A stretch of 64,000 bases of DNA from a virus (taxonomy: Duplodnaviria; Heunggongvirae; Uroviricota; Caudoviricetes), in IMG/VR virus record IMGVR_UViG_3300037088_000797, positions 1 to 64,000 of that record, one strand, 5' to 3'. Numbering within the stretch: position 1 is the stretch's first letter; each line of letters begins with the position of its first letter. Shown here in pieces: positions 15,677 through 32,917 of this stretch. Under the pieces are notes generated by a model, which saw nothing but the letters and a program-made list of their open reading frames with translations, had not been told where the DNA came from and did no database searches. A program made the translations under genes and the position numbers.

Positions 15677-16204
15677 CTAACTATTTTTATGAAATTCAAT
15701 TGCACCATCAAGATTTGCCATAAGTATATCATGATCAACCCCAGAAAACTGATCAATATGATTCAATTTTATAACCACACCCTTCTTGGTGCTCTTTATA
15801 ATTGATCTTACATTATTGTAGTCATCATAGTCAGTCTGGTATACACCCATTTCAATTGTCATAAGATTTTCAGGCACACCAATTTCAAGAGTATGATTAC
15901 CTTTCTTTTTCTTTCTTGGTACTAAAACAGTGTACTTTGGATTAACAACGTCTTTATCCACGTCATAAGTAAAAGTATGATCAAATACAAAACGCACTTT
16001 ATTTATAGGTATCTCATTACGTGTAAATAAGTCTTTAGCATTTTTGATTTGTTTCTTTTCTACTTCAGTTAATTCTTCACCATTAATAATAACGGTATCG
16101 AAGTTCGGTGGTGTCTGAACTTCAACAATCTTGAAGAATGGAAATTTATGAATTAATTGTAACATATTTCTTAAGTAAGTAGTCCAGCAAACCAATAATA
16201 GCAA
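15677..16204 (-). CDS. hypothetical protein
   Basis: 175 aa ORF. Confidence 0.45.
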   Translation of the reverse strand: MLLLVCWTTYLRNMLQLIHKFPFFKIVEVQTPPNFDTVIINGEELTEVEKKQIKNAKDLFTRNEIPINKVRFVFDHTFTYDVDKDVVNPKYTVLVPRKKKKGNHTLEIGVPENLMTIEMGVYQTDYDDYNNVRSIIKSTKKGVVIKLNHIDQFSGVDHDILMANLDGAIEFHKNS

Positions 16205-16719
16205 TCCTGACTTTTATCACCAGTGTTGTTATCACAAAAATAAAATGCCATATATAAATTCAGCACTTCTGCAAAGATCAATGCATCAATCAGTTTCTCA
16301 GCACGTCTTTTAGCTGCACCCCAATCACCATCCCTGTCACCTTTTGACCAAGCATTATATGCGTCATCATGATGTTCAATGATTTCTAACACGTCTTTAT
16401 CTGTGATAAAATCTTCCGCAAATCTGCGTGCAATTGTGCCATGATGATTTTCGCCATGCTTTGGCTTTGTTCTGTCAACCTTATGTTTAAAGGTATCATG
16501 CAGTATTGCAATTTGACGTAGTTTTTCTCTTTCTTCGTCAGTTTCTGCATGTTTATCAACGTTCGCCAATACTTCTTTAATGTGATAAATAACCTGACCT
16601 TCGGGATGCCCCCTACGAGCTTTGCCGTAAAGAGCACCCTCTTCGAAGTCAGGACATCCAGCGATATTTCTCTCAACCTGATTTTCAGGTTTGATTATAT
16701 CTTCTATTAGTTTATTCAT
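16171..16719 (-). CDS. HD-domain phosphohydrolase (candidate RNA 3'-end healing phosphoesterase)
   Basis: RGHPEG...ILHDTFKH...HHD metal-binding His/Asp pattern of HD superfamily; 4-nt overlap with upstream Pnk-like kinase gene. Confidence 0.6.
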   Translation of the reverse strand: MNKLIEDIIKPENQVERNIAGCPDFEEGALYGKARRGHPEGQVIYHIKEVLANVDKHAETDEEREKLRQIAILHDTFKHKVDRTKPKHGENHHGTIARRFAEDFITDKDVLEIIEHHDDAYNAWSKGDRDGDWGAAKRRAEKLIDALIFAEVLNLYMAFYFCDNNTGDKSQDCYYWFAGLLT

Positions 16720-17105
16720 AATTGTATATTAAATTTTTTTCTCATGTTTTCTATTGTTTCGTCAGTAACGCCATGAGAGTTAACGCCACCGTGACGGTTT
16801 TCAACGATTACACTGAAAACTTTATATCCGTATACTTCAGCCAATTCATAGTAACGCTTCATGTCTCGTGTGTGCACAGATGTGTTTGCCACCACGATTT
16901 TATCAGCACCAACTTTCATATATCTCTCACACTTACGCTCACACCAGTTATGTGCTGCATAAAGTTTCCATGCTGCCCAATCATATACTCCGTCAACCAT
17001 CATATAATCATCAGCACAGCATATAGCTTTAGTGTTAAGCAGTTCTGCAAATGAGTTTTTACCTGCTCCCGGTAACCCCCTAACTATTATAAGCACATTT
17101 TTCAT
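16716..17105 (-). CDS. polynucleotide kinase-like P-loop kinase
   Basis: Walker A GLPGAGKN; CCADDY and IVVANT..RDMKRYYELAEVYGYKV resemble T4 Pnk kinase-domain motifs (RDDY, ISDTNL, FAKEYGWKV). Confidence 0.6.
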   Translation of the reverse strand: MKNVLIIVRGLPGAGKNSFAELLNTKAICCADDYMMVDGVYDWAAWKLYAAHNWCERKCERYMKVGADKIVVANTSVHTRDMKRYYELAEVYGYKVFSVIVENRHGGVNSHGVTDETIENMRKKFNIQL

Positions 17106-17112
17106 AATACAA

Positions 17113-17142
17113 TTATACGAATATTTTTCGAATTGGTTACAA
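17113..17142 (-). promoter_or_regulatory. recurrent promoter-like motif
   Basis: ttatacg 17113-17119, ggttacaa 17135-17142; upstream of Pnk-like kinase/HD pair. Confidence 0.5.
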
Positions 17143-17144
17143 AA

Positions 17145-17981
17145 TTAATTTAATTTTACAATATTTTTTGCAATTAATTCATTTAATTGATATTGTGGAA
17201 CAATTCCAAAATCTAACACTTTAAATTTAAGTTCATTTTCTTTACAATATTCAATAACGGATGCAAATTTCAATAAATTTAGTGGCGTATTATGTAATTT
17301 TTTTGGTTTGACTTCTATCAAGTATTTGTTATCAACAATAAAATCTGGTGAATAAGTTCTTTCATTACCAGTATAACTTAAATATTTAATTCTTATTTTT
17401 TCTGCCGATATAATTTTTAATTTAAAACGTTCACAGATCAATATAAATTTTAATTCGTGTAGGCTTCTGAAAAAGAAACTATTATACCATCCGCTAATAC
17501 CATTACCCGATTTTTGGGGTGGTTCTTTTCCATACATGGGATTATTTTTACCTTTACTTTTTGATGACCATTTTTTTCTACGATTACTATCTCGTTTATT
17601 TGCCTCTTCAATTCCATATTTTTCAACCCAAATATCAAACACTGTTTTTCCGTACATTGAATTATTTTCACCTGATGAAATTATTCTCATTTTATCTCTG
17701 AATTCAGGTGTTTTGTATGAATCAGAATTATTTAAATGTGATTGAGATATCAAATTTTTACTTTCTATGCTATGTACATGATTTTGAAATCCATTCTTTC
17801 TTTCACCAGATTTTACTTCCGCATTTATAATGTCAATAGTACTACCATAGTTTTTATATCTTATTTTACTGGAACATGACCTGCATGGTCTTTTATTATG
17901 ATCACATTGATTTCTACTATATTTTGTTTTATGTGTTATTATTTCATTACATTCAGGACATTTTCTTGTGTATTCTTCCAT
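17145..17981 (-). CDS. zinc-finger protein, possible endonuclease
   Basis: CPECNE...CRSC zinc ribbon at N-terminus; C-terminal ERTYSPDFIVDNKYLIEVKPKK resembles PD-(D/E)xK-type motif. Confidence 0.35.
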   Translation of the reverse strand: MEEYTRKCPECNEIITHKTKYSRNQCDHNKRPCRSCSSKIRYKNYGSTIDIINAEVKSGERKNGFQNHVHSIESKNLISQSHLNNSDSYKTPEFRDKMRIISSGENNSMYGKTVFDIWVEKYGIEEANKRDSNRRKKWSSKSKGKNNPMYGKEPPQKSGNGISGWYNSFFFRSLHELKFILICERFKLKIISAEKIRIKYLSYTGNERTYSPDFIVDNKYLIEVKPKKLHNTPLNLLKFASVIEYCKENELKFKVLDFGIVPQYQLNELIAKNIVKLN

Positions 17982-18035
17982 AGCATTACTTTTTAATAAA
18001 TACTATGGAAGAACCAAGAAGACCTCTGACAATAA

Positions 18036-18218
18036 TTAATTATTGTTTGATCTTTTACTTTCAGTAACTTCAACTTCTTTTCCGAGTTTAATATCGGTTG
18101 TTTCAATTACATTTGATGTAACTTTAATGTCAACCGTTTCGTTGGCATCATTTCGTTGCTCTGATTTTTGAATGGCAACTTCTTCTTTTTGATCATTTAA
18201 TTTTAATGAATCTGACAT
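18036..18218 (-). CDS. hypothetical protein
   Basis: 60 aa ORF. Confidence 0.3.
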   Translation of the reverse strand: MSDSLKLNDQKEEVAIQKSEQRNDANETVDIKVTSNVIETTDIKLGKEVEVTESKRSNNN

Positions 18219-18222
18219 GGTT

Positions 18223-18717
18223 TTAATTTAAAAATATAATTATTATTATTAAAATTGCTTTCAATGTGAGAAATGATTTGAAAGCACATTTCAATGAGTT
18301 TAAATCACTGTTTCTTTTGTTATTAATATTATGATTGTTAGTGATACATTTTTCAAGTCCATCTAATTCTGCATTCATTAATCCTTCTAACGTATCTTTC
18401 GAATTACAGTATCCTCTATAGGCTTTAATATCCACAATGATTTTATAACTACCATCATAAATATAAACTTTAAAGAATAAATATGTGATATAAATAATCC
18501 CAAGAAACTCATATATAAAAAAAAGAAGATAAGATGGTAACGTTATATATTTGTAGTAAACATCAATTGATTTACAAAATAATAAAATCATACCTGTAAC
18601 AAGAGCAATCCACATATATGAAAAATTATGAAGTTTAGATTCTAATTGAATAACTTCTTTTTCTTGTTCGCTTATCATGTTTCTGGCAATTTCTACAGTA
18701 TGTTTCAATTTTTCCAT
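18223..18717 (-). CDS. membrane protein
   Basis: 164 aa, several TM-like segments; promoter-like motif 18759-18788 upstream. Confidence 0.45.
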   Translation of the reverse strand: MEKLKHTVEIARNMISEQEKEVIQLESKLHNFSYMWIALVTGMILLFCKSIDVYYKYITLPSYLLFFIYEFLGIIYITYLFFKVYIYDGSYKIIVDIKAYRGYCNSKDTLEGLMNAELDGLEKCITNNHNINNKRNSDLNSLKCAFKSFLTLKAILIIIIIFLN

Positions 18718-18758
18718 TTTAAAATATTTTTATGATTAATACTTTCTTCATCATGCAA

Positions 18759-18788
18759 TTATACGAAATTAAATTGGATTAGTTACAA
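18759..18788 (-). promoter_or_regulatory. recurrent promoter-like motif (variant)
   Basis: ttatacg 18759-18765, agttacaa 18781-18788. Confidence 0.45.
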
Positions 18789-19005
18789 TTTCAACTAAAT
18801 AAAATTTGTCTGTCAATATTTTTTCTAAGGAAAAAATTATGCCAGTTGTACTTTCCCACCATATTACCGTGTCCAGTAATTCTTTAGTGGCTTCATTACC
18901 TTCCTTATCTCTTATGTCGAAATTTGCTTTCAACGGTTCGAGCAGAGTTGGATAATCTTTTAAATCCAATTCCTGTTTGATAATAAAATCAATTACTCTC
19001 TTCAT
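18769..19005 (-). CDS. hypothetical protein
   Basis: 78 aa ORF. Confidence 0.4.
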   Translation of the reverse strand: MKRVIDFIIKQELDLKDYPTLLEPLKANFDIRDKEGNEATKELLDTVIWWESTTGIIFSLEKILTDKFYLVEIVTNPI

Positions 19006-19528
19006 CTGTTTTATTTTTTAAATTTTCACGTACTTCCATTAATGCTTTACCTAAAAGGTTCATACCTCTCCAGTTCTTTTCATTAAGAACCCTGTCATCG
19101 TCATGGTATAAGCCAATACCCCAGATTTCATCATAAGGACTGGCTTCAACAATGATCTTATCTTCGGTAGAAAGCAAAACATCTTTAAGTATTCGCTTCT
19201 GACCAAACTTAGCCATATTAACATCAACCATAACTTTATAACCAACCTGTAACCACTGATCAACATCGAAATTTTTAACCAGTCGTCCTAATTTTTTACA
19301 TTGATTCGGAGCAGGAGTTTTCATTATTTTTTCTGCAATATCCATGTCGCCAAAGAAGATTGCTTTTTCCCACATGAATGCCTGTTCAGAATTAAAAAAC
19401 GTAAGGTTCTTATACCTGAATTTACATTCATACCAATTGGAGAATTCACTTCCCCAAAAAAATACATATTTATCTGTTATTCTTTCCATTTTCTTCTTTT
19501 TTATGTATATATCTTGAATGTGCTTCAC
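18989..19528 (-). CDS. NADAR (YbiA-like, DUF1768) domain protein
   Basis: YVFFWGSEFSNW...FNSEQAFMWEKAIFFGD...KKLGRLVKNFDVDQW...EASPYDEIWGIGL matches NADAR family pattern (FY..FSNF, SEQ..M.KA..F.D, LGR.V..FD...W, EASP.D..WGIG); alternative start ATG 19489. Confidence 0.8.
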   Translation of the reverse strand: MKHIQDIYIKKKKMERITDKYVFFWGSEFSNWYECKFRYKNLTFFNSEQAFMWEKAIFFGDMDIAEKIMKTPAPNQCKKLGRLVKNFDVDQWLQVGYKVMVDVNMAKFGQKRILKDVLLSTEDKIIVEASPYDEIWGIGLYHDDDRVLNEKNWRGMNLLGKALMEVRENLKNKTDEESN

Positions 19529-19691
19529 CTAATAGCATTAAGCCAAACACAATCATAATCACAAATATTGCCCACAAATGATGTGGAAATTTACTATTTC
19601 CAATTGTATATGAAACAATTAAAAATAGAAAACACCATGCTTCTGCTTTTGCAAAAAATTTCCAATTAACTGTTTTTAAAAACTCTTTCAT
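19470..19691 (-). CDS. small membrane protein
   Basis: 73 aa, two hydrophobic helices. Confidence 0.35.
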   Translation of the reverse strand: MKEFLKTVNWKFFAKAEAWCFLFLIVSYTIGNSKFPHHLWAIFVIMIVFGLMLLGEAHSRYIHKKEENGKNNR

Positions 19692-19701
19692 ATGTTTTTA
19701 T

Positions 19702-19974
19702 TTAAAATCCTACAATTTTTTTATAATATGTCCAATAATAAAGAAGATTAATGACTCGCATTTTTTCAGGAGTCATAGTATTAATATCTCTTAAAAGTGC
19801 TTCGAAATATTCTTTTGGAGTACTTACAGTCTTATCATTATAATATGCAAGAATCCAGTTCAGAGTTTCTATTTCAACTGTTTTGGTAGCCAGATAACCT
19901 TCTGGAAATAAATAAGTGTTTGAATTTATATTATTTAAATATTTTTCAATTTTTTGTTTTTCAAATCTTTTCAT
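19702..19974 (-). CDS. hypothetical protein
   Basis: 90 aa ORF. Confidence 0.4.
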   Translation of the reverse strand: MKRFEKQKIEKYLNNINSNTYLFPEGYLATKTVEIETLNWILAYYNDKTVSTPKEYFEALLRDINTMTPEKMRVINLLYYWTYYKKIVGF

Positions 19975-20104
19975 AATTTTTTGTTTTTAATTTAATAATT
20001 ACACCACACATTGGGATAAGAAATAAATAAATCCAACGTTTCTTTTTATCATAAAATACACCAATCCAAAAATCAAACCACGCAAAAATAAACTGTATCT
20101 TCAT
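19961..20104 (-). CDS. small membrane protein (47 aa)
   Basis: ATG at 20104 directly downstream of promoter-like motif 20109-20138; hydrophobic. Confidence 0.3.
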   Translation of the reverse strand: MKIQFIFAWFDFWIGVFYDKKKRWIYLFLIPMCGVIIKLKTKNYEKI

Positions 20105-20108
20105 ATTA

Positions 20109-20138
20109 TTATACGAACATTTCTTAAATAAGTTACAA
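20109..20138 (-). promoter_or_regulatory. recurrent promoter-like motif (variant)
   Basis: ttatacg 20109-20115, agttacaa 20131-20138. Confidence 0.45.
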
Positions 20139-20378
20139 ATATATGAAAGTTTATTTAAAATAGCTTACTTTTTAAGAAATATTTAGTATTTATGTACATA
20201 ATATGTATACGATATGAAAAAAAAGAAAATTTACTACACATTCAGAATTCATTCTGAACAATTGGAATATCTTAGAAATAAAGCTAAAACTGAATTCACT
20301 ACTGTTACACAATGTTTACTCGATTTAGTGTGCAAAGATATGAAAGAAAATAATCAAAAACAAAGCAAATAATATTTT

Positions 20379-21089
20379 ATGAATAAAATTTGTGGAATAT
20401 ATAAAATAACATCACCAACTAATAAAATTTATATCGGACAGTCTAATAATATTAATAAAAGACTTGAAACATATAGAAATATTCGATGCATTACTCAAAT
20501 TCGATTGTATCGTTCGATTATTAAACATGGTTGGGATAAACATACTTTTGAAATAATTCATGAATGTGACGAGTCTGAATTAAATGATTTAGAAAAACAT
20601 TATATAAAACATTACAATTGTTTCGATACTCCTAATGGTTTAAATCTAACAAGTGGTGGAGATTCACCAATTGTTTCTGAAGAAACAAAATTAAAAATTG
20701 GTTTAGCAAGTAGAGGAAGAATACCATATAATAAAAATAAATCATTGTCTGAAAAAACTAAAGAAAAATTAAGTTTATCACATATGGGATTGATACCACA
20801 TAATAAAGGTAAGAAAACTTCTGTTGAAATAAAGCAAACACAAAGTAAAGCTCATGTTGGAAATAAAAGTAAAACGGGAAGTTATGAAATATATAATCAG
20901 GACAATAAATTAGTTTATAAGTTTACTGGTAAATTCATGGATAAAGTAAAAGAATATGGATTGCCTACTTATTCGTTCTTAAGATCATATCAAAAAAATA
21001 TAAAAATAAATAGAATTAATTTTAAAGATTGGTATGCAATAAAATTATTAAAAGTCGATCTTACTTGTGAGAACAGTTGCGGTCATTGA
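20379..21089 (+). CDS. GIY-YIG homing endonuclease with NUMOD-like repeats
   Basis: GIYKITSPTNKIYIGQS GIY-YIG motif; repeated TKLKIGLASRG / TKEKLSLSHMG motifs; opposite strand to flanking genes, 3' end overlaps 3' end of helicase gene by 42 nt. Confidence 0.8.
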   Translation: MNKICGIYKITSPTNKIYIGQSNNINKRLETYRNIRCITQIRLYRSIIKHGWDKHTFEIIHECDESELNDLEKHYIKHYNCFDTPNGLNLTSGGDSPIVSEETKLKIGLASRGRIPYNKNKSLSEKTKEKLSLSHMGLIPHNKGKKTSVEIKQTQSKAHVGNKSKTGSYEIYNQDNKLVYKFTGKFMDKVKEYGLPTYSFLRSYQKNIKINRINFKDWYAIKLLKVDLTCENSCGH

Positions 21090-22472
21090 GGGTCTTGTTA
21101 AAGCCACATACTTGATCTGGTTACGTTCTTTTAATATCCAGTTATCATTAATGTCAGTTTCAATAACAAATACATGTGTATATGTTGAACCCTGTGATTT
21201 GTGCCCTGTGATTGCATAACCATAGTCAAAATCTTTAGAAATAATATCTGGTCTTGCTCTGTATAAGCCATTTCTATATTTCTCAATACTTACCATAATC
21301 ATGGTGTTACGTCTGAAGTCATAATATTTTCCCCAGAGTTTCTTATTTGTTTTTGCCATGTCACGATACATGTCATGCATTTCTGCAAAATTATGTAAAT
21401 TCTCATGATCTCTATGATCAAGAATAAAAATATCCTGAAGTTTATGTTTACCGTGTGCAAGGTCTTCTTTTATTTGAATCATATAACCTTTCATGTGATA
21501 TGCGTTCTCAGTCAGATCAGATTTGTTCATTACAAGGTAGTCTGCAGAATTTTCAATAATATTGTAGTTCTGTTTTTCATTCATAATACTACGATATCCC
21601 ATGAGTAAATCACCAATCTCAATTATATTTACATTTTTACCGAATAATGATTCTCTGATAACCATATTTGATGCCATGACAGTATCATTACGCCAGCAAA
21701 TAACTTTTGCAAAGTCAGTATCATTACGAAATTCATCTGATCTAAATTTATCAAGTAACGCTGTACGAAATTCACGCTTATTAATAGTGAAAACAACACC
21801 TTCACCCAGAGAATTCATATCAGTCTTTCTAAGAAAACCACCATCAAGCCTATTTAGATTATTTCTAAGAGCATCATATATGAAAGCAAGAGGATTGGTA
21901 TCATTCTGTCTTTCCATCTTTGTAAGCTGATGAAATTGCTCTCCAGCATGTGTAAACACTGCACTTTCTTTCTCACCAACAGGCGGTATTTGTGCAGGGT
22001 CACCCATATATAATACTTTGGTTTTACTATCTGTAGTTTTCTCATTGATCATATTGAAAAGTTCAAGATTGATCATGGATGCTTCATCAACAATAACAAA
22101 ATTATAGTCATTAATTCTCGGTATGGCTATTGGATTAAACTTCGGGTCGTTTGGATTGAATTCATCAAGATTGATGTCGGGTCTGAGTCCAAGTAATCCA
22201 TGTAAAGTTTGACCATCTTTACCAGTCATATTCATTACTACTTTTTTTGCTTTATGAGTAGGTGCACTTACTACAACGCCACGATGATAATGATCAAGTA
22301 TCTTTTTAATCATTGTTGACTTGCCAGTACCTGCGTATCCTGCAAGAGTAAAGAAGGTCTGACCATTCTTAAGCCAATCCTTAATTTTTACTAATCCGTT
22401 AAACTGTTCACCGTTGAACGTGATTATCTTGCCGTTAGACAATTGTAGTTTGTTTTCGTCAATCATTACCAA
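21048..22472 (-). CDS. Dda/RecD-like SF1B DNA helicase
   Basis: Walker A GYAGTGKST, Walker B FVIVDEASMI, motif V-like ITGHKSQGSTYTHVFV. Confidence 0.75.
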   Translation of the reverse strand: MVMIDENKLQLSNGKIITFNGEQFNGLVKIKDWLKNGQTFFTLAGYAGTGKSTMIKKILDHYHRGVVVSAPTHKAKKVVMNMTGKDGQTLHGLLGLRPDINLDEFNPNDPKFNPIAIPRINDYNFVIVDEASMINLELFNMINEKTTDSKTKVLYMGDPAQIPPVGEKESAVFTHAGEQFHQLTKMERQNDTNPLAFIYDALRNNLNRLDGGFLRKTDMNSLGEGVVFTINKREFRTALLDKFRSDEFRNDTDFAKVICWRNDTVMASNMVIRESLFGKNVNIIEIGDLLMGYRSIMNEKQNYNIIENSADYLVMNKSDLTENAYHMKGYMIQIKEDLAHGKHKLQDIFILDHRDHENLHNFAEMHDMYRDMAKTNKKLWGKYYDFRRNTMIMVSIEKYRNGLYRARPDIISKDFDYGYAITGHKSQGSTYTHVFVIETDINDNWILKERNQIKYVALTRPSMTATVLTSKIDF

Positions 22473-22654
22473 ATTCTTTCTATATAAACATTATATCCAA
22501 TAAAATATGTATTAACCATATGCTTTTCTTCCATTTCTTTTAATGCTTCATGGTAGTTTTCAATATGTTCGAGATCATAATATCGAATAGTATCTTTATT
22601 TTTATCTTTAAAGACTTTTTTTATTTTTTTTATTTCTTCTTTATAAGATGTCAT
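22466..22654 (-). CDS. hypothetical protein
   Basis: 62 aa ORF. Confidence 0.35.
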   Translation of the reverse strand: MTSYKEEIKKIKKVFKDKNKDTIRYYDLEHIENYHEALKEMEEKHMVNTYFIGYNVYIERIW

Positions 22655-22911
22655 TATTTTCTAAGTGATTTCAATATTTTTATAAAATCATATAGCTTAT
22701 TAATGTCTCTGAATTTACCAAGTTCAGTATAGTCATATAATTCTACATACCATTTATTTTTTACACAGTCATCATTAGTATTACTAATAAGACATAAATC
22801 TTTTATGTCATAAGTATAATAATAAAATGGTGCATTATCACCACTATCTTCTTGGGATACCTCTTGTCTTTTAAAGCCAAGAAATATCAATTTTTTTTCT
22901 GTTATATTCAT
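22654..22911 (-). CDS. hypothetical protein
   Basis: 85 aa ORF. Confidence 0.4.
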   Translation of the reverse strand: MNITEKKLIFLGFKRQEVSQEDSGDNAPFYYYTYDIKDLCLISNTNDDCVKNKWYVELYDYTELGKFRDINKLYDFIKILKSLRK

Positions 22912-23507
22912 TTTATAATTCTACTAAAATTTTTATTAAAAAATTTAATTGCGTCCTTTATTGTATCATCATGATGAAATGCCCAACTATATTCATTACA
23001 AGTAGAATAAAAGTCGATCATTTTCATCCATTTTACCAGTGCAGTTTCTTTACTTGTAAAGCCTTCCGCATGTAGTGGAAACTTACTCATTTTGTCAAGA
23101 AAATCATATGTTGAAAGATATATTAATGAAACATTTTGACGCTTACTGTTTGGGTCGTCAGTAATCTGAATTGGCTGTTTATTATTATCGAACATAAGCT
23201 GTTTTTCAATGTCTGGAAGATAAACAGAAGTTTCTTCATATACTTCTCTTACCATTGCTTCGTGAGTGGTTTCATCCCAATCAAGATAACCACAAGGTAC
23301 ACCCCATTTACCACCTTCATCAAGCATTCTTTGTGATCTTTTGGCAATAAGAACCTTCAGTCCGTCAACAGTATCAGCCAATACAATACCAACAACAGCA
23401 ACTGATCTACTAATCCAGAAGTCCTGATCGATCTTAATTCCACGACCATCATTGTAGTTGTATCTCAGATGATAGTTAGGTCTGTTTTTAAATTGTGGTA
23501 CGTTCAT
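22908..23507 (-). CDS. Nudix hydrolase
   Basis: Nudix box GKWGVPCGYLDWDETTHEAMVREVYEETS (Gx5Ex7REVxEExG). Confidence 0.75.
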   Translation of the reverse strand: MNVPQFKNRPNYHLRYNYNDGRGIKIDQDFWISRSVAVVGIVLADTVDGLKVLIAKRSQRMLDEGGKWGVPCGYLDWDETTHEAMVREVYEETSVYLPDIEKQLMFDNNKQPIQITDDPNSKRQNVSLIYLSTYDFLDKMSKFPLHAEGFTSKETALVKWMKMIDFYSTCNEYSWAFHHDDTIKDAIKFFNKNFSRIIK

Positions 23508-24027
23508 TTTGTAATTTTATTAATTTCTCTTTTAAATTCCATATTCTCATTGTGCCAAGTCTTGCAACACTTAATTGTTCTGCAAGAGTTAATTTTCGTG
23601 CTCCTTTGACTCTTACTGCCTGACGTTTAGTACATACACTTACAATTTCTCTGCCATCATCATGTAACCATTTTTCACACACTAAAATTCCAGCGTTTTT
23701 CGGTATTATATCTTTACAAGACTCATATAAATTTTTCGGTATTGCAAAGTATAATTCCTTTATTCTGTTCTTTTTGTCCTTATGATCATGTCCCTTCTTA
23801 AAGTCAGCCAATAAATCCGATTTGCTTCTTTTTATTTCAACTTCAAATGCATATCCATTTCTTTGTATTAAAAATAAATCACATTCATGTATCCAGTCAA
23901 AACCATATGACAATTTTGGTACAATAATGTGTAATCTAATCTTGAAATACTTGGCTATTGCCAACTCCATTTCACTTGTTGTCAGAGGTTTTAGTTTCTT
24001 CGGTGTTCTCGTTTTTGATAAGGGCAT
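23488..24027 (-). CDS. hypothetical protein, possible PD-(D/E)xK nuclease fold
   Basis: HECDL...YAFEVEIKRSK resembles D..ExK signature; weak. Confidence 0.35.
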   Translation of the reverse strand: MPLSKTRTPKKLKPLTTSEMELAIAKYFKIRLHIIVPKLSYGFDWIHECDLFLIQRNGYAFEVEIKRSKSDLLADFKKGHDHKDKKNRIKELYFAIPKNLYESCKDIIPKNAGILVCEKWLHDDGREIVSVCTKRQAVRVKGARKLTLAEQLSVARLGTMRIWNLKEKLIKLQNERTTI

Positions 24028-26043: not shown

Positions 26044-26047
26044 ATTA

Positions 26048-26281: not shown

Positions 26282-26286
26282 ATCGA

Positions 26287-26317
26287 TTATACGTATTAAA
26301 GTAAATAAAAGTTACAA
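26287..26317 (-). promoter_or_regulatory. recurrent promoter-like motif (variant)
   Basis: ttatacg 26287-26293, agttacaa 26310-26317; only 5 nt from ATG of gene 26048-26281. Confidence 0.45.
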
Positions 26318-28258
26318 TTATTGACTTAAAAATTTTATTATCTTATCTTCATATGAATATGATAATTTATCGTTAATCTCGGTTTGTTTTAAATTCAAAC
26401 CATTTGTATTGCAAATTTCAAGAAAATGTTGAATTGTAATTCCATTGTTATCAACAGCATATTTAGTCAATGCTTTATATGTACCCATGTTTTTATTTAA
26501 AAGGTCTTTGGCTCTGGTTTTTTCTTCTTTTAATATTCCTTCAATAATTTCATCGGTTTTCTCTGTGCTATAATTAAGTTCTTGTGCCTGTGGTGCTTCT
26601 TTCTTAATTACTCTTGAAACAATGCCATCCATGCCATAATTTCTAACATATCTACCTGCAGCATCTGTCGCATTTGATATATCGGCATGTGCACCAACTG
26701 ATTTATAATCTTCACTAAAAACAAGTTCTTCTGCAACTAAACCACCTAAATAAATTGCGATACGATTTCTAAGAAACATTTTGTTTTCAATTGAACTATG
26801 ATTAATAACAAAACCTTCAGATAAACCAGAACTGTTTAAATTAATCTGTCTTGGCGGAGTTTTATATAAAATAGCATATAATAATGCATGACCCAATTCA
26901 TGAACAGTTACCAGTATTTTCTCGTCTTTTGTTTTTCCGCTACGGATATTATCTATGTCAAGCACAACATCTTTTTCGTATCTTTTTCCGTCAATATATG
27001 TGACTAATTGATTATCAATAATATCAAGAGACATTTTATCTAAGTCATTTACTAAACATAAATATAAAAAGAATGGTAAATTGCTGCCAAGCAGATTATA
27101 AACCGTTGAAATTGCTGGTCTTACGCCCTGTGTTGGAAACACACCGTTCCTATAAATTGCATCATAGATATTATCAAATAAAGTGATCTTAATATTATGT
27201 TCACTTTCAACCCTGTTAAGAATTAAAGCACAGTTTCTTTTAATAATTTCGTAATAACTTTTCTTATCCAAACAGGGATAAATAACATGGTTATTTCCAA
27301 ATCTTGCTATTTGTTCTGGCTTGAATTGTTTAGCCAAAGCATTTTTAATATGAATAATGTTGATTCTTTTGCTGAGTTCATGATATATATCGGCATCCCT
27401 TTCACTGTCTTCAACTTCATCAGCCATTGTAAATGCTTCATCAAGGTTGCCTGATATGAAGATAAGAAGTTTTTCATATGACTTGCCTTCATTGACATTG
27501 CCCAGCTTAAGACTGCTCTCCATGATCTCCATACGCTGTTCAAGACTCATTTTCATAATTTCTTCACCAGAAATATCCAAATTAAGCATTTTTTTGAATC
27601 TATTTGCAGTCCAATAAGATGTTTTATATTTATAATGTTTAATTTTCTTTTCTTCGTTAGTTATTTGTACCTTTTTACCTTTTTTTACTATTTTTGGTGG
27701 TTTATCTTCAATTTCATCATCAGGGTCATTTTCTCTTCTATCTGAATAATACATTTCTTCAAACAATAAGTCCAATATTTCTGTCCTACGTTGGGAATTA
27801 TTTTGAAATCTACCATCAGAAAGAAGCATCCAAATATCATTAAAATATTTATTTTCAACCATTGCACCGTTTTCATCTATGGTGCGATAACGTTGAATTT
27901 CGTCCAGAAGAAGTATGGCGGGTTCTTTCGAATCAATGCCAGAACTTTCCAGAAAATTTTCAATGTTTTTAGAATAATCGTTCTTCATGTCCATCTGGAT
28001 TTCAATGAACTTATCGGTAAACTTCAGCAGTTTAACCAAATTACGAACAAGATCGGTTTTACCAACACCTGTGATGCCCCAGAGAGAAACAATAAGAGGT
28101 CTAAACTGAAGTTCTGGAGTAAGATACCACAACGAAATGCTGTCAATTATTTTGTCAATTACTTCATCAATTCCAATAAATTTTTCTTTCAATGCTATTT
28201 TAACTTCTTCAAGTACTTCTCTTTTTGACTTAATGCGTTCAAGAAATTCGTTATTCAT
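26318..28258 (-). CDS. soluble FtsH-like AAA+ ATPase / M41 zinc metalloprotease
   Basis: Walker A GITGVGKTD, Walker B AILLLDEIQ; C-terminal TVHELGHALL (HExxH) plus IAIYLGGLVAEELVF and SVGAHADISNATDAAGRYVRNYGM closely parallel FtsH HEAGHA / LYGGRLAEE / STGASNDIKVAT blocks; no TM segments. Confidence 0.75.
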   Translation of the reverse strand: MNNEFLERIKSKREVLEEVKIALKEKFIGIDEVIDKIIDSISLWYLTPELQFRPLIVSLWGITGVGKTDLVRNLVKLLKFTDKFIEIQMDMKNDYSKNIENFLESSGIDSKEPAILLLDEIQRYRTIDENGAMVENKYFNDIWMLLSDGRFQNNSQRRTEILDLLFEEMYYSDRRENDPDDEIEDKPPKIVKKGKKVQITNEEKKIKHYKYKTSYWTANRFKKMLNLDISGEEIMKMSLEQRMEIMESSLKLGNVNEGKSYEKLLIFISGNLDEAFTMADEVEDSERDADIYHELSKRINIIHIKNALAKQFKPEQIARFGNNHVIYPCLDKKSYYEIIKRNCALILNRVESEHNIKITLFDNIYDAIYRNGVFPTQGVRPAISTVYNLLGSNLPFFLYLCLVNDLDKMSLDIIDNQLVTYIDGKRYEKDVVLDIDNIRSGKTKDEKILVTVHELGHALLYAILYKTPPRQINLNSSGLSEGFVINHSSIENKMFLRNRIAIYLGGLVAEELVFSEDYKSVGAHADISNATDAAGRYVRNYGMDGIVSRVIKKEAPQAQELNYSTEKTDEIIEGILKEEKTRAKDLLNKNMGTYKALTKYAVDNNGITIQHFLEICNTNGLNLKQTEINDKLSYSYEDKIIKFLSQ

Positions 28259-28289
28259 AATTTATCGTGTTTCATTTGTTTAGACAAAG

Positions 28290-29051
28290 TTACTTATATT
28301 TTTCAATTAAACAATTATATTTATTATATTTTCTATTTAAATAGATTGTAGATTTATTATACAAATATTTTAAACATTTAAATGCTGATTTACCATAATA
28401 AAATATTGCACAAATATTTTGATTATATGTTATATCTGGCATGTCTTTACTTCTTAATTTTATTTTAACTGTTTCAAAAAAATATTTTCGTATAAATTCA
28501 ACAGTCTTTTCAGTGCCTAAGAAACTAATAGTATCTGTTGTTGTATATGTAATACATCCATCGCCATCAAAATAACCACGAATGAAATCTTTAAGATATT
28601 TTTTTGGTATTTTATTACTAATTCCACAAGTTAATGATTTTTTGTTATATATTTTAAAGTTATTTTGCAAGTCTTTAATTATTTGTGGTGAAGATATAGT
28701 AATACTATAATATTCTTCTCTTTCAAATACAGTACCTTCATATTCAATTGTTTTTTTAAACTTATTTAAATGATCAACATCTTGTTTTTGTAATTTAATT
28801 TCCAATGCAAATCTTTTATTTGTTCTAATATATCCATCAGCTAATATAAAACCTGCCCAATAACAATTTTCTTTATTAAATTTTGAAAAATAAAAATTAT
28901 TTACTTTTATTCTTGATGTCCTTTTCCTAAGTTCAACATTTTCGCTTTTTAAATATTTTTGAATTGTTGTTCTATGTAAATTATATTTACGTGCCAACTC
29001 TTGTGTACCCAAATAATTGTTAACATAATCATTAATTATTAAATTTTTCAT
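28290..29051 (-). CDS. LAGLIDADG homing endonuclease
   Basis: Two LAGLIDADG-type motifs WAGFILADGYI and IRGYFDGDGCI; N-terminal HTH-like segment. Confidence 0.8.
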   Translation of the reverse strand: MKNLIINDYVNNYLGTQELARKYNLHRTTIQKYLKSENVELRKRTSRIKVNNFYFSKFNKENCYWAGFILADGYIRTNKRFALEIKLQKQDVDHLNKFKKTIEYEGTVFEREEYYSITISSPQIIKDLQNNFKIYNKKSLTCGISNKIPKKYLKDFIRGYFDGDGCITYTTTDTISFLGTEKTVEFIRKYFFETVKIKLRSKDMPDITYNQNICAIFYYGKSAFKCLKYLYNKSTIYLNRKYNKYNCLIEKYK

Positions 29052-29119
29052 AAAAAATGCTTTTTAAATAAATACTAAAAATTTTTTAAAAAGCATCTTG
29101 TTGTCCATAATATTAATAA

Positions 29120-29950
29120 TTAAGGCATATCTGGAATTAAATTATAAAGAAATTCCATGTCTTGTGTAAAAATTGGACATTCAACACTTTTCCAAACCGT
29201 TCTAAAATAATTTGTTGGTTCTTTAACATACGATTTAAAAACATCTGTCTTCATTTCAACAGTTTCTTTTATGATAAGTCTTCCTCTTTTTTGTTTTGCG
29301 GGATAGTCGTTCCAATTAATACCCCTTTGAAATATCATTTCTTGTTTTTGATCACTATTTTTGCCATCTACTTCTTTTTGACTGTAAAGATTACGTGCAA
29401 CACTTGAAATAGAATTTCTTGTAGCATCTTTTTGTCTCCAAACTATCATATTTCCAACTTCTGTTTTAGATGGTATTGTGAATACACGAGCATCAAAAGT
29501 TGCAAGTTTCATATTAAGAATGTCTTTCTCATATGGTTTAATTGAAATAAAACCATCTGAATCAATGCTGGTGGAATTTTTTATAATTCTTAATAATCTC
29601 AATCTGTTGAATTCGGCAGTAGCCAAACCAGCAGCAACACTAACGATCTTCTGGATATTACCATCAAACCATGCATCAGTACCAATTGCATCAAAATCAG
29701 TCATAAGAATAGAAATTTCATCAGACTGCACAAATGCAAATTTAGTACCTTGTATGTTCTTACAAAGATAAGAAGCAGTTGCATCCATATCATCAATAAG
29801 ACCCTGATCAAAAGGTTGTATTAAACCTCTGGTATAAGTGTGAAATGCCTTACCATCAACACGGATTATTGTATATGTCCTACGTGGAAGCAGAAACCTT
29901 GTTCTATCCTCATAATAGGATTTCATGCGATCTCCAAGTTCATCTTTCAT
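29120..29950 (-). CDS. Thg1-like protein (tRNA-His guanylyltransferase family, 3'-5' nucleotidyltransferase)
   Basis: MKSYYEDRTRFLLPRRTYTIIRVDGKAFHTYTR and FAFVQSDEISILM match Thg1 N-terminal catalytic blocks (RxDGxxFH, QSDE). Confidence 0.8.
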   Translation of the reverse strand: MKDELGDRMKSYYEDRTRFLLPRRTYTIIRVDGKAFHTYTRGLIQPFDQGLIDDMDATASYLCKNIQGTKFAFVQSDEISILMTDFDAIGTDAWFDGNIQKIVSVAAGLATAEFNRLRLLRIIKNSTSIDSDGFISIKPYEKDILNMKLATFDARVFTIPSKTEVGNMIVWRQKDATRNSISSVARNLYSQKEVDGKNSDQKQEMIFQRGINWNDYPAKQKRGRLIIKETVEMKTDVFKSYVKEPTNYFRTVWKSVECPIFTQDMEFLYNLIPDMP

Positions 29951-29951
29951 A

Positions 29952-30320
29952 TTATTCTCCTTTAAATTTATTTGTTGTTATTAATTTTAAAATTCTATCT
30001 TTTTCATCCCATGATTCAATTTCAAGTGTATCAAACATTTCAAATATCGGATAATTTAAAATTTCTTGTTGTTTGTACCTGTCTTTGATAGTTTTACCAT
30101 CGACATAAACAACATTAGCTTGAAATATTCTTTTACGAAGCGAATCATCTGCAACTGGTGTAGTAATGCGTTCGGACACTTCAACCAAACTAAAGTCGAA
30201 TTTTTCTGGTGAGTTAAGTAAATATGTTACGGCTGACCGTGCCATATCTTGACTCTCAGCTTTAATTACTACTTTTATAATCGTTTTACCGTCATTAAAT
30301 TCAAATTTGTACTCTTTCAT
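29952..30320 (-). CDS. hypothetical protein
   Basis: 122 aa ORF. Confidence 0.45.
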   Translation of the reverse strand: MKEYKFEFNDGKTIIKVVIKAESQDMARSAVTYLLNSPEKFDFSLVEVSERITTPVADDSLRKRIFQANVVYVDGKTIKDRYKQQEILNYPIFEMFDTLEIESWDEKDRILKLITTNKFKGE

Positions 30321-30321
30321 T

Positions 30322-30612
30322 TTACAAAAATTTAGTGTAATCCTCTAATCCTAACTCTGCTCCATCACCAAAAATGTAGCCAACCACAAAAAATATTACT
30401 TTACCGTCTTTACCACGAGTTAATGACATCAAACAGTCAGGTGAATCAGAGTAATCTCTTGGCGCATAAAACACACCCATATGATTTGGTATGTTTTCAT
30501 ATGCCTTTATCCAAGGAATTGCTAACAGTTCTTCTTTCGTGTTAACTTCGTGCTCAGTCATTTGATCTTCATAACCTGAGAAGAAATTTGGAAATCTTCT
30601 TTTTACTTTCAT
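30322..30612 (-). CDS. hypothetical protein
   Basis: 96 aa ORF. Confidence 0.45.
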   Translation of the reverse strand: MKVKRRFPNFFSGYEDQMTEHEVNTKEELLAIPWIKAYENIPNHMGVFYAPRDYSDSPDCLMSLTRGKDGKVIFFVVGYIFGDGAELGLEDYTKFL

Positions 30613-30751
30613 TTCTTTTTCTGTTTACCAATTATTCTATCACCTTTTAAATAACGTTTATATGCTTCAGGCACTTTTTTTGGTGACTGATAACTCTTTG
30701 CAAAGTTAGCAAACTCAATCATATCTTTACGTGAATATCGTCCCATATTTA

Positions 30752-30949
30752 TTATATTTTACATGGACACCAATCAGGTATTGCTACCTTATCAAAAGTT
30801 TCAACATATCCAGCAATCTTTTTACCATGTGCTTTGTTGCAAAACCAATTAAATGCCATTTCAAAACTATCTGCAGTATACATTCGTTCCTCTCTGAAAA
30901 AAGGACACTCACTACAATTTTTAATGCTGATTTTAATTTCCGTTGCCAT
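30752..30949 (-). CDS. small Cys-rich protein
   Basis: 65 aa; CSECPF...WFCNKAH...WCPC. Confidence 0.4.
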   Translation of the reverse strand: MATEIKISIKNCSECPFFREERMYTADSFEMAFNWFCNKAHGKKIAGYVETFDKVAIPDWCPCKI

Positions 30950-31096
30950 TTTCTTCCAGTTTTATATCCAAATATTTCTTTTCCATGTCTCTCATAAGAC
31001 TGGCATCTTGAAATTCACCGATATTAACTAAGGTGTACTTTAATTCTATCACCAATTTCAAGATTTTATCTTTATCTTCTGCTGTTATTATTCTCA

Positions 31097-31960
31097 TTAT
31101 TTCAACGTACTGTTAAGTTTCTGTTTGAATAATTGAACTGTTTTATTACCAATAGCTTTACTTGCTTCACGTGATTCAATTATCTCACCTTTACCTTCCC
31201 TGTATACATCTTCAATCATTGCTTTAATGATTGTAGGTACACCTTCCATGCTGATATCAACAGGTAGTTTCTGAAGTACGTGTTCCAGACGAAGATTGGT
31301 AACCCATTCTTCAGCAATTGCTTTAGCTTCTTCAAGAACTTTAACCTGCTCTGGAGTTACCTCACGTTTAGATTTAGTTTCCATTTGTTCATCTGGTTTA
31401 TACTTACATATAACTCTCTCACCATTATTAGTTTTCATTTCAATCAATGGGCGGAGAACAATACCTTCACGTTTTTGTGGCTCTACAATACCATTACGAA
31501 CAGCTTGAACTGAATTACTGTCTCTTTCTGCAGTAAGCGTTTCCAAGTCTGTGGTAATCTTATTGTAAGATACAAACTCCAGACTAAATTGTTTGCAAAC
31601 ATCTTCTGCATTTGGTACATTAAGCCAAACATCACCAACGTAAACGTCAAAGCCAATAAATTTAAGAACTTTGCCATATCTAAATGATTGACCCTGTTGT
31701 TTACCACCATATGCTTCGCCATAAATGGTTACATCAACATCTGGAAAAATTTCAGCAAATTTGGCTTTAAGAAAGTCTTTGTTGAATAATGCAGCAAATG
31801 CTACATTACTTTCGCCACCACTACTGTAACGAACGTCTTTGCTTTCAAATTTCCAACCAATATGTGTTGATGTGCCATGAATTTTTTCCATAGCATAACA
31901 TTCTTTAAATAAAAGAATTGTCTGTGACTTATATAGGTTCTCTATATGTAGGTATCCCAT
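31097..31960 (-). CDS. RNA ligase, Rnl2 family
   Basis: Motif I EKIHGTS (T4 Rnl2 EKIHGTN, lysine nucleophile), YGEAYGGKQQG (cf. FGEFAGPGIQKN), EGIVLRP (cf. EGYVLKP), ICKYK (motif V). Confidence 0.8.
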   Translation of the reverse strand: MGYLHIENLYKSQTILLFKECYAMEKIHGTSTHIGWKFESKDVRYSSGGESNVAFAALFNKDFLKAKFAEIFPDVDVTIYGEAYGGKQQGQSFRYGKVLKFIGFDVYVGDVWLNVPNAEDVCKQFSLEFVSYNKITTDLETLTAERDSNSVQAVRNGIVEPQKREGIVLRPLIEMKTNNGERVICKYKPDEQMETKSKREVTPEQVKVLEEAKAIAEEWVTNLRLEHVLQKLPVDISMEGVPTIIKAMIEDVYREGKGEIIESREASKAIGNKTVQLFKQKLNSTLK

Positions 31961-31973
31961 TGTAAATAATTTA

Positions 31974-32486
31974 TTAGTAAGTATTTATATAATTTTTAAT
32001 ATCATCGATGTTAAGTTTATTTTTTTCAATGAATCCAATAAGTATGTTGCAACTTGAACATAATAATGCTCTGTTTTTATTTGTTTCATGTGAATGATCA
32101 ACTGCCAACATTTTTTTATTTTCTTCTTCAGTTCTATGACAAATAGCACAACCATTACCTTGATTATTTAATATTACGTTATATTCTTCAAGCGTAATAC
32201 CGTATTTCCTTTTTAATGTGCTGTTTCTATATTTTAATTTATCTCTCATATATTGATCTTTTTTCGCATTTTTTCCTTTTTCAGTATCATAATATATTTC
32301 CAACATTTCACGATTACATTCTTTACAATGAGAACCTATTTTGCCTCTTGTTTTCATTGTAGAAAATTCATCAAGGTCTTTTACTTTTTTACATCGTGGA
32401 CAATATTTTTTATGTTGCTTTAATAATTCTTTTGCTTTAAGTGATGATATTTTTAATTTCATTGTAATTTTAACATTAATAAACAA
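31974..32486 (-). CDS. endonuclease VII-like HNH endonuclease with N-terminal zinc finger
   Basis: CAICHRTEEENKKMLAVDHSHETNKNRALLCSSCN matches T4 endoVII / HNH motif; CPRCKK...HCKECN zinc finger. Confidence 0.7.
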   Translation of the reverse strand: MFINVKITMKLKISSLKAKELLKQHKKYCPRCKKVKDLDEFSTMKTRGKIGSHCKECNREMLEIYYDTEKGKNAKKDQYMRDKLKYRNSTLKRKYGITLEEYNVILNNQGNGCAICHRTEEENKKMLAVDHSHETNKNRALLCSSCNILIGFIEKNKLNIDDIKNYINTY

Positions 32487-32663
32487 TCTGATCTGTGAAT
32501 ACCATCATAACAACCACAGTATTCGCATTTTTTTCCTAATGCTTCTTTCGCATTTGCAATTGCTACCCCTAATGCAACAAATGCATCTTCGCTGATAGTA
32601 ACTGTTTTCTTTTTTTTCTTCTCCATAACTTTTAATTAAAAACGTTTTTAATGTACTGATAGA

Positions 32664-32687
32664 AGGTCCGCACATGAGTGCGGACCT
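32664..32687. terminator. GC-rich hairpin AGGTCCGCAC-ATGA-GTGCGGACCT (no adjacent U-tract)
   Basis: Perfect 10-bp stem, 4-nt loop; core GGTCCGCAC shared with hairpin at 56858-56882. Confidence 0.5.
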
Positions 32688-32812
32688 CAACCAGACAGGT
32701 TTAGTTGCCAACTTTCCTTTGTGACGGAGCTTCCTTTATCTCGATGAACGGGGGTTCATCAGGTAGGCATGTTATCCGTCCTTTCAACACGCAGCCATCG
32801 TGTTAGTAATCG

Positions 32813-32917
32813 AGCGCAGTTCGGGATTCGAACCCAAAAGATGTTGTAATTACTGGTGCACCTTCTACATCTACCGTACCTTCCGATACGTGCCTTAACC
32901 AATTAGACTACCCACGC
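32813..32917 (-). tRNA. tRNA-like gene (about 105 nt, atypical; isotype undetermined)
   Basis: On minus strand: acceptor GCGTGGG/ACTGCGC (2 GU + 1 mismatch), U8-A9, D-arm GTCT-AATTGGTTA-AGGC, canonical T-arm TTGGG-TTCGAAT-CCCGA, discriminator T; anticodon region irregular (CGTA stem with 8-nt loop UCGGAAGG) and a 36-nt extra region with AGATGT/ACATCT stem. Confidence 0.4.

Follow-up and report, generated by a model that had tools for sequence, protein, structure and literature searches.

A candidate RNA repair toolkit in a large phage, with a conserved RNA array that contains a tRNA-like RNA lacking an anticodon loop

The first 64,000 nucleotides (nt) of IMG/VR virus record IMGVR_UViG_3300037088_000797 (Caudoviricetes), referred to below as the window, encode a Thg1-like protein (TLP), a divergent ATP-dependent RNA ligase of the Rnl2 family, a stand-alone kinase resembling polynucleotide kinase (Pnk), and a putative metal-dependent HD-domain phosphohydrolase. 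Upstream of the ligase gene lies a conserved array of structured non-coding RNAs, one of them tRNA-like. We consider it probable, with some reservation, that the source is a large (jumbo-type) phage that encodes a toolkit for the repair of breaks in RNA, most plausibly tRNA. We judge with similar, qualified confidence that the core of this toolkit is a co-transcribed unit of RNA array, Rnl2 ligase, and TLP. An original prediction, made from the DNA sequence alone, had proposed that the four proteins and a tRNA-like gene together heal and seal broken RNA. The coordinates of all four open reading frames (ORFs) proved exact, and profile searches upheld all four family assignments. None of the three findings named as contrary to the proposal was made, these being a kinase unlike Pnk kinase domains, an HD protein that is a dNTPase, and a Thg1-like ORF without its catalytic carboxylates. 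The repair reading stands well for the TLP, the ligase, and the kinase, but a role in repair for the HD protein is unproven. The protein set is also less novel than first supposed. Linkage of Thg1, Pnk, and RNA ligase genes, together with a phage Thg1, was in print in 2010 (PMC2904730), and a 2021 survey describes repair sets in jumbo phages (PMC7824862). The proteins are thus of a kind already predicted, and the RNA array is the unexpected part.

The Thg1-like protein, the RNA ligase, and the kinase

The TLP, encoded at 29120-29950 on the minus strand, matches Pfam family Thg1 (PF04446) with E=7e-25, scoring 87.8 bits against a gathering score of 29.2, and PHROGs family phrog_4717 ('tRNA-His guanylyltransferase') with E=1e-77. 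Its closest solved relative is the TLP of B. thuringiensis (BtTLP; 4KGK, E=2.5e-54), and yeast and human Thg1 give weaker matches, from 4e-5 to 8e-11, in the PDB search. By sequence, then, bacterial TLPs are nearer relatives of this protein than are the eukaryotic tRNA-His guanylyltransferases. The window protein keeps the catalytic carboxylates. Residues D32, D77, and E78 align with the RIDG and QSDEIS motifs of BtTLP and are equivalent to D29, D76, and E77 of human Thg1, and both D32 and the S76-D77-E78 triplet are invariant among 21 phage TLPs. Relative to BtTLP the protein carries an insertion of 29 residues, at about residues 118-146. From its family it is predicted to carry out templated 3'-5' nucleotide addition. 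An FtsH-like protein (AAA plus peptidase M41; 26318-28258, minus strand) is encoded directly downstream of the TLP, in relatives as well as in the window, and shows up to 87% identity to its counterpart in locus L009 (the L numbers are our locus labels).

The ligase (31097-31960, minus strand) matches Pfam RNA_ligase (PF09414, E=1.6e-12) and is assigned by PHROGs to phrog_548, 'RNA ligase'; NCBIfam model TIGR02307 scores it at 38 bits, far under the 197-bit cutoff. Single-sequence searches of the PDB with the ligase, the kinase, and the HD protein returned only noise, so family profiles were required. A profile built from 24 ligase homologs has a single PDB match, T4 Rnl2 (2HVQ, E=1.4e-9), with residues 20-278 aligned to residues 30-322, an alignment spanning both the nucleotidyltransferase and the C-terminal domains. 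Pfam T4_Rnl2_C is undetected in the window protein, but the alignment runs through 2HVQ residues 232-322. Invariant in the 24 homologs are K26 (in EKIHGT, motif I), E82, E165-G166, and K186/K188, which align with motifs I, III, IV, and V of T4 Rnl2. By these alignments the protein is a short, divergent Rnl2, predicted to seal 3'-OH/5'-PO4 nicks in duplex RNA.

The kinase (16716-17105, minus strand) is recognized as a P-loop kinase by Pfam model AAA_33 and, weakly, as 'polynucleotide kinase' by PHROGs. It belongs to a large family of fixed size, about 129 amino acids, that consists of the kinase domain only. Similarity to Pnk kinase domains is evident by family profile against the PDB, by fold, and by hhalign. 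The best matches of the profile are the stand-alone tRNA-splicing RNA 5'-OH kinases of Mucorales (9DRZ/9D8A, E about 3e-7; PMC11571804), followed in order by PSTK, T4 Pnk, C. thermocellum Pnkp, and Pnkp1; the closest folds are those of T4 and Clostridium Pnk. In an hhalign comparison with the T4 kinase domain, which used a manually entered T4 sequence, the probability is 95% and the P-loops align. The same comparison places the invariant D31-D32 on T4 D34-D35, which includes the general base, and R103 on T4 R122, and finds no conserved equivalent of R38 or R126. An invariant ENRH...H motif is specific to the family. The kinase is likely to supply the 5'-healing activity of the toolkit. The family also has near-invariant residues C28, C54, and C58 and an invariant H51, in the motif CC-ADD...AHxWCxRKC. 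This pattern suggests a possible metal (Zn) site, foreign to T4 Pnk.

A conserved RNA array upstream of the ligase gene

Three non-coding elements, all on the minus strand and in conserved order, precede the ligase gene: a block of about 245 nt (32926-33170), a tRNA-like RNA that we call type 1 (32813-32917), and a structured RNA of about 150 nt that ends in a hairpin or terminator and is a candidate leader of the ligase operon (32655-32812). Between the array and the ligase is a small ORF of 55 amino acids (32459-32626, minus strand), beginning MEKKKKKTVTIS, which is kept in relatives.

The original prediction had noted a tRNA-like gene about 850 bp from the ligase. The element is real, conserved, and located 853 nt upstream of the ligase start, but it lacks an anticodon loop and belongs to the larger array as one of its modules. 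With its default settings, ARAGORN calls no tRNA anywhere in the window. With introns allowed or settings relaxed, a tRNA-Leu(TAG) with an intron appears only at the 80% threshold, in the company of 18 other spurious calls, and we rejected it. The Rfam tRNA model (RF00005), in a local scan, scores the element at 23.3 bits, below its 29-bit threshold. Nonetheless, the minimum-free-energy fold of the 105-nt element is a cloverleaf with a 7-bp acceptor stem, a D arm, and a T arm of canonical sequence, GGGUUCGAAUCCC. Where a tRNA would have its anticodon arm there is a 6-bp stem with a GGAA cap, and a long extra arm comes next. Across the family the loop at the anticodon position is variable, with 4 to 8 nt (GGAA, GGGA, CAAA, UGAGAA, and others), and has neither U33 nor the 7-nt form of an anticodon loop. 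The gene does not encode CCA; after the discriminator U comes an invariant CGA.

Homologs of the tRNA-like RNA occupy the same gap in related phages. Covariance model R1 finds it in nine further loci, at 46 to 118 bits, and weakly in six more. Over nine sequences, 93.7% of the cells are paired and double (compensatory) changes occur at 14 of the 22 pairs, figures that come from a model-fitted alignment, which favors the structure somewhat; none of 500 shuffles reaches the observed values, and slid partners pair in 38-54%. The acceptor, D, and T helices covary, as does the basal stem of the long arm, and the hairpin that stands in for the anticodon arm has double changes at five of its six pairs. 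We conclude that the element is a real tRNA-like gene that is not a decoding tRNA. In its distal long arm (32840-32870, minus strand) all nine family members have a core GUGCAC palindrome, as GGUGCACC, AGUGCACU, or GGUGCACA; such a self-complementary loop could serve RNA dimerization through loop-loop contact, or could be a protein site. A second, longer type of tRNA-like RNA, with a 7-bp acceptor stem (GAUUGGA/UCCAAUC), D and T arms, and an internal insert of about 75 nt, was seen at L101:1399-1547, L015:8164-8293, L018:8165-8292, and L148:2125-2298. In many relatives it takes the place of type 1 directly upstream of the 150-nt RNA.

The 150-nt RNA begins directly at the 3' end of the tRNA-like RNA. 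We collected 14 distinct copies from fetched loci, copies on 12 IMG/VR contigs by exact 20-mer match, and 56 copies (49 distinct) from metagenomes, where the pattern scan gave many chance matches and 56 of 120 hits passed an additional-motif filter. Among 60 copies (51 distinct rows), 98.1% of the cells are paired, against 25-38% with slid partners, and 0 of 500 shuffles score as high. Every pair of the long-range helix, and every pair of the terminator stem, shows double changes (for example UA 23, CG 14, AU 10). The first hairpin, by comparison, is invariant (AACACG/CGUGUU, with loop RUGGCUR), as are the stretches GGAUAACGUGCC, AGGAAAG, and AAACCUAA. A T-loop motif is found no more than 60 nt upstream in 43 of 54 copies, which indicates that the 150-nt RNA is generally preceded by a tRNA-like 3' end.

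An Rnl2-like ligase follows the RNA in 28 of the 34 metagenomic copies with enough sequence (82%) and in 12 of 13 IMG/VR contigs (92%), and a TLP follows in 13 copies. Where a clear stem plus U-run terminator is present, in 31 copies, the next start codon lies a median of 22 nt beyond it (45 nt or less in 26 of them), and the ORF that starts there is the ligase itself or a small ORF like that at 32626-32459 of the window. The MEKKKKKTVTIS-type N-terminal motif of the small ORF recurs right after the terminator in L227, L246, and L170. Because this spacing leaves no room for a promoter, the ligase would be expressed by read-through from the RNA array. In two metagenomic copies (L333:603-790 and L316:1434-1581) the RNA is followed by an ORF of 328-331 amino acids (MK[SK]FT[DE]IGQFR...) in place of the usual ligase of 287 amino acids; this could be a different ligase type.

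The 245-nt block (33170-32926) is conserved in L101, L093, L127, and L018. Its two ends, AGUCUUUCUG and CAGAAAGAYU, are invariant and mutually complementary, and probably pair to close the block; since both are invariant, covariation provides no test of this closing helix. Upstream of the block is a TAACTTTG box (33192-33199, minus strand). The motif TAnnTTTG is not enriched in the window (94 observed, 111 expected), so a promoter for the array and a Bacteroidota host for the phage, the latter presumed in the original prediction, both stay conjecture. Within the block, a 19-nt stretch, CGCCUCUCAACGAUGCGCA (32995-33013, minus strand), kept in L093 and L101, gives a partial match to the Rfam abiF family at 22.4 bits, below the gathering threshold of 37; we discounted an abiF-like identity as probably a chance resemblance. 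Rfam searches of the window (at gathering thresholds and at E<=1) and of the locus (E<=10) returned no family other than this and the sub-threshold tRNA. The array is absent from Rfam 15, targeted literature searches found no description of it, and it appears to be undescribed.

Gene linkages, the HD protein, and alternative readings

The gene order o137, non-coding gap, ligase, TLP, FtsH-like is kept in about 15 related viral contigs, with the ligase and TLP genes 1-2 kb apart. Beyond these, profile hidden Markov models reveal TLP linkages that are not orthologous to one another. In L047 the TLP directly abuts a protein with RNA_ligase and T4_Rnl2_C domains, while in L034 a PHA02142 protein with OB-fold and RNA_ligase domains ends 5 nt before the TLP. 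L014, L016, and L023 have TLPs that abut PF09414 proteins of 340 amino acids. Among L052-L086, a large group of its own, the neighbor of the TLP is a T4-type Pnkp (AAA_33 plus HAD_PNKP), with direct adjacency in L082-L086. True tRNA clusters adjoin distant ligase and TLP loci. The recurrence of such linkages, to different ligases and to Pnkp, supports a joint function in healing, filling, and sealing, and it matches the published association of bacterial Thg1 genes with Pnk-family kinases and RNA ligases (PMC2904730). Gene context in other phages thus offers independent support for the link between TLPs and RNA healing and sealing that had been proposed for the window.

Five genes of homing-endonuclease type are interleaved with the repair genes within 18 kb (14475-15206, 17145-17981, 28290-29051, and 31974-32486 on the minus strand, and 20379-21089 on the plus strand). 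They comprise two GIY-YIG, one NUMOD3/TnsA-like, one LAGLIDADG, and one Endonuclease VII type. Some are missing in relatives, which accounts for the variable spacing of syntenic genes. Several jumbo-phage contigs of 316-363 kb that carry the genes described here are filed as bacterial metagenome-assembled genomes (L174, which is JBAZIW010000001.1 of 362,763 bp, and L006-L008), and their labels, 'Candidatus Paceibacterota' and 'Dehalococcoidia', are probably binning artifacts. A Megablast search of 8 kb against the INPHARED phages gave no match.

The HD gene (16171-16719, minus strand; Pfam HD, E=2e-7) follows the kinase gene, and the two overlap, the kinase stop and HD start forming ATGA. The HD family is tightly conserved, at about 182 amino acids, with invariant H45, H73-D74, N90-H91-H92, H116-D117, and D162, which include the metal ligands, and from these residues the enzyme looks active. 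Neither the single sequence nor the family profile has a relative in the PDB at the sequence level, and folds were compared instead. The best fold match is an enzyme whose helical body and tail domains bind the acceptor and T arms of tRNA (PMC3925840). Next are YhaM and the HD domain of GlyRS-beta, which approaches the acceptor arm (PMC8464048).

The suggestion that kinase and HD protein are a split version of bacterial HD-Pnk was not supported. The gene order, kinase then HD, is the reverse of that in HD-Pnk, and the HD gene is a fixture of its own block, MmcB-NUDIX-PIF1-(NADAR)-HD-o175, in 32 viral loci. Of these loci, 14 have the kinase, always just upstream of HD and directly adjacent in eight. 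No fused HD-kinase homolog occurs among the top 120 matches of either family. In the window the ligase is 14 kb from the pair, and no ligase is adjacent at HD loci. By the definition of the Runella HD-Pnk family as conveyed in PMC6097658, separate genes, reverse order, and lack of an adjacent ligase place the HD protein outside it. Members of the block in the window are NADAR (18989-19528), a PIF1-like helicase (21048-22472), NUDIX (22908-23507), and an MmcB-like nuclease (23488-24027), all on the minus strand and kept with the HD gene across many jumbo-phage contigs. Genuine chromosomes of Ktedonobacteria, Planctomycetota, and Actinomycetota also carry HD homologs, with 42-52% identity, and there kinase, ligase, and TLP are absent. 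In at least two Ktedonobacteria (L196 and L214, Pfam-confirmed) the HD gene is directly downstream of a FemAB-family aminoacyl-tRNA-dependent transferase gene, and in a third Ktedonobacteria chromosome (L216) an ORF of similar size to the FemAB-family gene precedes it. The cellular neighborhoods were rejected as a clue to a repair role, as the neighbors are heterogeneous.

More orthodox candidates for 3' healing than the HD protein are two HAD_SAK_2 ('Swiss Army Knife') phosphatases, one at 37250-37840 on the minus strand (PF18143, E=1.6e-16) and one at 40241-40726 on the plus strand (E=5e-19). PMC7824862 describes SAK-HADs as stand-alone 3'-phosphatases that usually accompany Pnk and ATP-dependent ligases in jumbo phages, and HD-like phosphatases as present in only a few. 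Given this, the HD protein as 3'-healing partner of the kinase is possible but unproven. Between the two HAD_SAK genes lie an Rv2179c-like 3'-5' exoribonuclease (39291-39842, plus strand; PF16473, E=4.8e-54), possibly for RNA end trimming, and beside it a second HD protein (HD_4, RelA/SpoT-type; 38431-39006, plus strand). Together they form a second small cluster related to RNA and nucleotides. Just past the RNA array are an ATP-dependent DNA ligase (34810-36015, minus strand) and an R2K-clade ATP-grasp protein (36259-37053, minus strand). Elsewhere in the window, also on the minus strand, are a peptide deformylase with a SEC-C motif (3985-4563), a radical-SAM protein (4952-5776), and a patatin-like phospholipase (47612-48553). 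A PHROGs search with ten neighbors of unknown function added nothing related to RNA.

Several observations weigh against a single toolkit with the core described above. Much of the adjacency of TLP and ligase is synteny inherited within one clade. The terminal hairpin of the window's own 150-nt RNA (32690-32663) is GC-rich and has no U-run, and the array copy in L148 has no recognizable ligase downstream, where an ORF of 303 amino acids lacks any Pfam match. The kinase is missing from 18 of the 32 HD loci, and in the window the kinase-HD pair is 12 kb away from the core, among genes of DNA or nucleotide type (PIF1, NUDIX, MmcB, NADAR). Cellular HD homologs in Ktedonobacteria and Planctomycetota adjoin genes for FemAB, nucleotide cyclase, RIO kinase, and calcineurin-like phosphoesterase, not repair genes. 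The facts on the kinase and HD genes would suit a repair module limited to RNA array, Rnl2, and TLP, with the kinase and HD protein belonging to a separate block and acting on DNA ends or nucleotides, for instance in phosphorylation of DNA 5'-OH ends or hydrolysis of nucleotides or second messengers, so that the toolkit would be in part a coincidence of annotation. In keeping with this, the HD block context also occurs in other jumbo phages without the kinase, histidine-kinase genes are among the neighbors of cellular HD homologs, and DNA is a substrate of T4-type Pnk enzymes too. Stand-alone kinases likewise act on both DNA and RNA (PMC11571804). On the other side, the closest relatives of the kinase are RNA and tRNA kinases, the kinase where present always immediately precedes HD (overlapping it here), and the best structural neighbors of HD bind tRNA or RNA ends (PMC3925840, PMC8464048). 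PMC7824862 adds that the presence of Pnk in jumbo phages tracks RNA ligases. On balance we regard such a separation as a serious but clearly less probable account.

The TLP might instead serve routine tRNA maturation, such as G-1 addition to tRNA-His or 5'-end editing of phage tRNAs, with its position near a ligase a matter of history. G-1 addition is indeed the best-known role of the Thg1 family (PMC2904730), and phage tRNA clusters with a tRNA-His gene lie next to some TLP loci (L043, L046). In those tRNA-His genes, however, G-1 is already encoded opposite C73; this speaks against a simple role in G-1 addition, and we rejected that role. The window has no tRNA genes by ARAGORN, the protein is of the bacterial type, nearest to the 5'-end-repairing BtTLP, and TLP genes are linked recurrently to different ligases and Pnkp, all of which make a maturation role improbable. 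Still more improbable, in our estimation, is that an ancestral phage tRNA cluster has left the tRNA-like element and the blocks on either side of it as decaying, now functionless remnants. True tRNA genes do occur just upstream of the ligase in distant relatives (L111, L112, L121, L128), and the element does fall under the Rfam threshold and lack an anticodon loop. Compensatory changes, however, maintain all four helices of the cloverleaf, that of the anticodon-arm substitute among them, and over 51 distinct copies the neighboring RNA shows covariation in its helices and hardly any variation where it is single-stranded. A decaying element would not keep such features.

Proposed repair pathway and relation to known systems

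Under the preferred reading, that of a phage toolkit for RNA repair, the minus-strand core unit would be transcribed together as RNA array, small ORF, homing endonuclease, Rnl2-type ligase, small ORFs, and TLP. From the family assignments and linkages we infer the following substrates, order of reactions, and counter-defense purpose. After damage by a host nuclease, the stand-alone Pnk-like kinase would phosphorylate 5'-OH ends, and 2',3'-cyclic phosphates or 3'-phosphates would be removed by a phosphoesterase, with the HAD-SAK pair, the HD protein, or all three as candidates. The TLP would then refill missing nucleotides on the 5' side in the 3'-5' direction, templated by the paired strand, and the nick left in duplex RNA would be sealed by Rnl2. 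The combination of a TLP with a nick-sealing ligase suggests that this refilling and sealing would amount to gap repair in paired regions of RNA.

The most likely function of the array is as a cis-acting leader, as processed small RNAs, or as both, tying the expression or activity of ligase and TLP to a tRNA-like structure. More specifically, and only tentatively, we propose that the tRNA-like RNA, together with the 150-nt RNA that continues from its 3' end, may be a dedicated RNA component of the phage Rnl2-TLP system. It might be an attenuator that senses damage by mimicking the substrate, in which case ligase and TLP expression could be switched on by tRNA-directed nucleases or by repair intermediates, or else a processed scaffold or guide, similar to a Y RNA, that recruits the enzymes.

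The toolkit shares with T4 Pnkp and Rnl1 (and Rnl2), which counter the anticodon nuclease PrrC, a phage 5'-kinase, 3'-end healing, and an ATP-dependent RNA ligase; the window ligase belongs to the Rnl2 family and the kinase has the T4 Pnk fold. The kinase of the window, however, stands alone at 129 amino acids, with no fused C-terminal HAD phosphatase, and the candidate phosphatases (HD and the two HAD_SAK proteins) are separate. A fused Pnkp as in T4 is present in other TLP phages. The window, moreover, adds a TLP, shows no Rnl1, and has a short, divergent Rnl2. Bacterial TLPs such as BtTLP resemble that of the window closely in sequence and in catalytic residues, and have the same links to Pnk-family kinases and RNA ligases (Anantharaman, Iyer and Aravind 2010, PMC2904730, where the Thg1 of phage 201phi2-1 is noted). 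They differ in that the window TLP is phage-encoded, has the 29-residue insertion, and has a structured RNA array upstream of it. Runella slithyformis HD-Pnk (Munir and Shuman 2017, via PMC6097658) similarly joins an HD phosphoesterase to a Pnk-type kinase. There they form one polypeptide, N-terminal HD and C-terminal Pnk, with an adjacent ligase, whereas the window has two genes in the order kinase to HD, no adjacent ligase, and an HD gene that often occurs without the kinase. The repair sets of jumbo phages (Iyer et al. 2021, PMC7824862) are the nearest in content, with Rnl2, Pnk, SAK-HAD phosphatases, occasional HD-like phosphatases, and sporadic Thg1 in the passages concerned, which do not describe a conserved non-coding array upstream of Rnl2.

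For the array itself the closest precedents, by analogy, would be tRNA-like Y RNAs beside rtcB and leaders that work through a terminator. Bacterial Y RNAs (YrlA/YrlB, in rsr-yrlBA-rtcBA operons) are likewise non-decoding tRNA-like RNAs beside an RNA ligase operon, and some RNAs of this type have a 7-bp acceptor stem, are processed by RNase P, and receive CCA, with several RNAs in one precursor (PMC4201824). In the window, by contrast, no TROVE (Ro60) domain was found in the scanned ORFs, no Rfam Y RNA model matches, the RNA ends at an acceptor stem and not at a Ro-binding helix, and the ligase is Rnl2, not RtcB. With T-box and other terminator leaders the array has in common a conserved structured leader, an intrinsic terminator immediately before the gene, and a theme of tRNA, but it has no T-box sequence or Rfam match, and its tRNA-like structure is within the leader transcript itself. 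The array has the defining features of neither a tRNA, nor a Y RNA, nor a T-box.

Host defenses based on tRNA cleavage are an important and expanding topic in the conflict between phages and bacteria, and include anticodon nucleases, PARIS, some retrons, and the collateral RNases of Cas13 and type III systems. To our knowledge, T4 Pnkp/Rnl1 is the only counter-measure understood biochemically. The locus described here would be a compact alternative to that of T4, combining kinase, phosphoesterase, 3'-5' polymerase, and nick-sealing ligase, and could mend gaps in addition to clean breaks. It is the RNA array, though, that gives the locus its claim to follow-up: a widespread element, missing from Rfam, that includes an anticodon-less mimic of tRNA and is coupled both physically and, it appears, transcriptionally to a ligase gene. 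Should the array prove to sense RNA damage or to serve as a scaffold in its repair, the pathway would be one regulated by an RNA that imitates its own substrate, and either the attenuator or the scaffold would represent a new class of phage regulatory or cofactor RNA.

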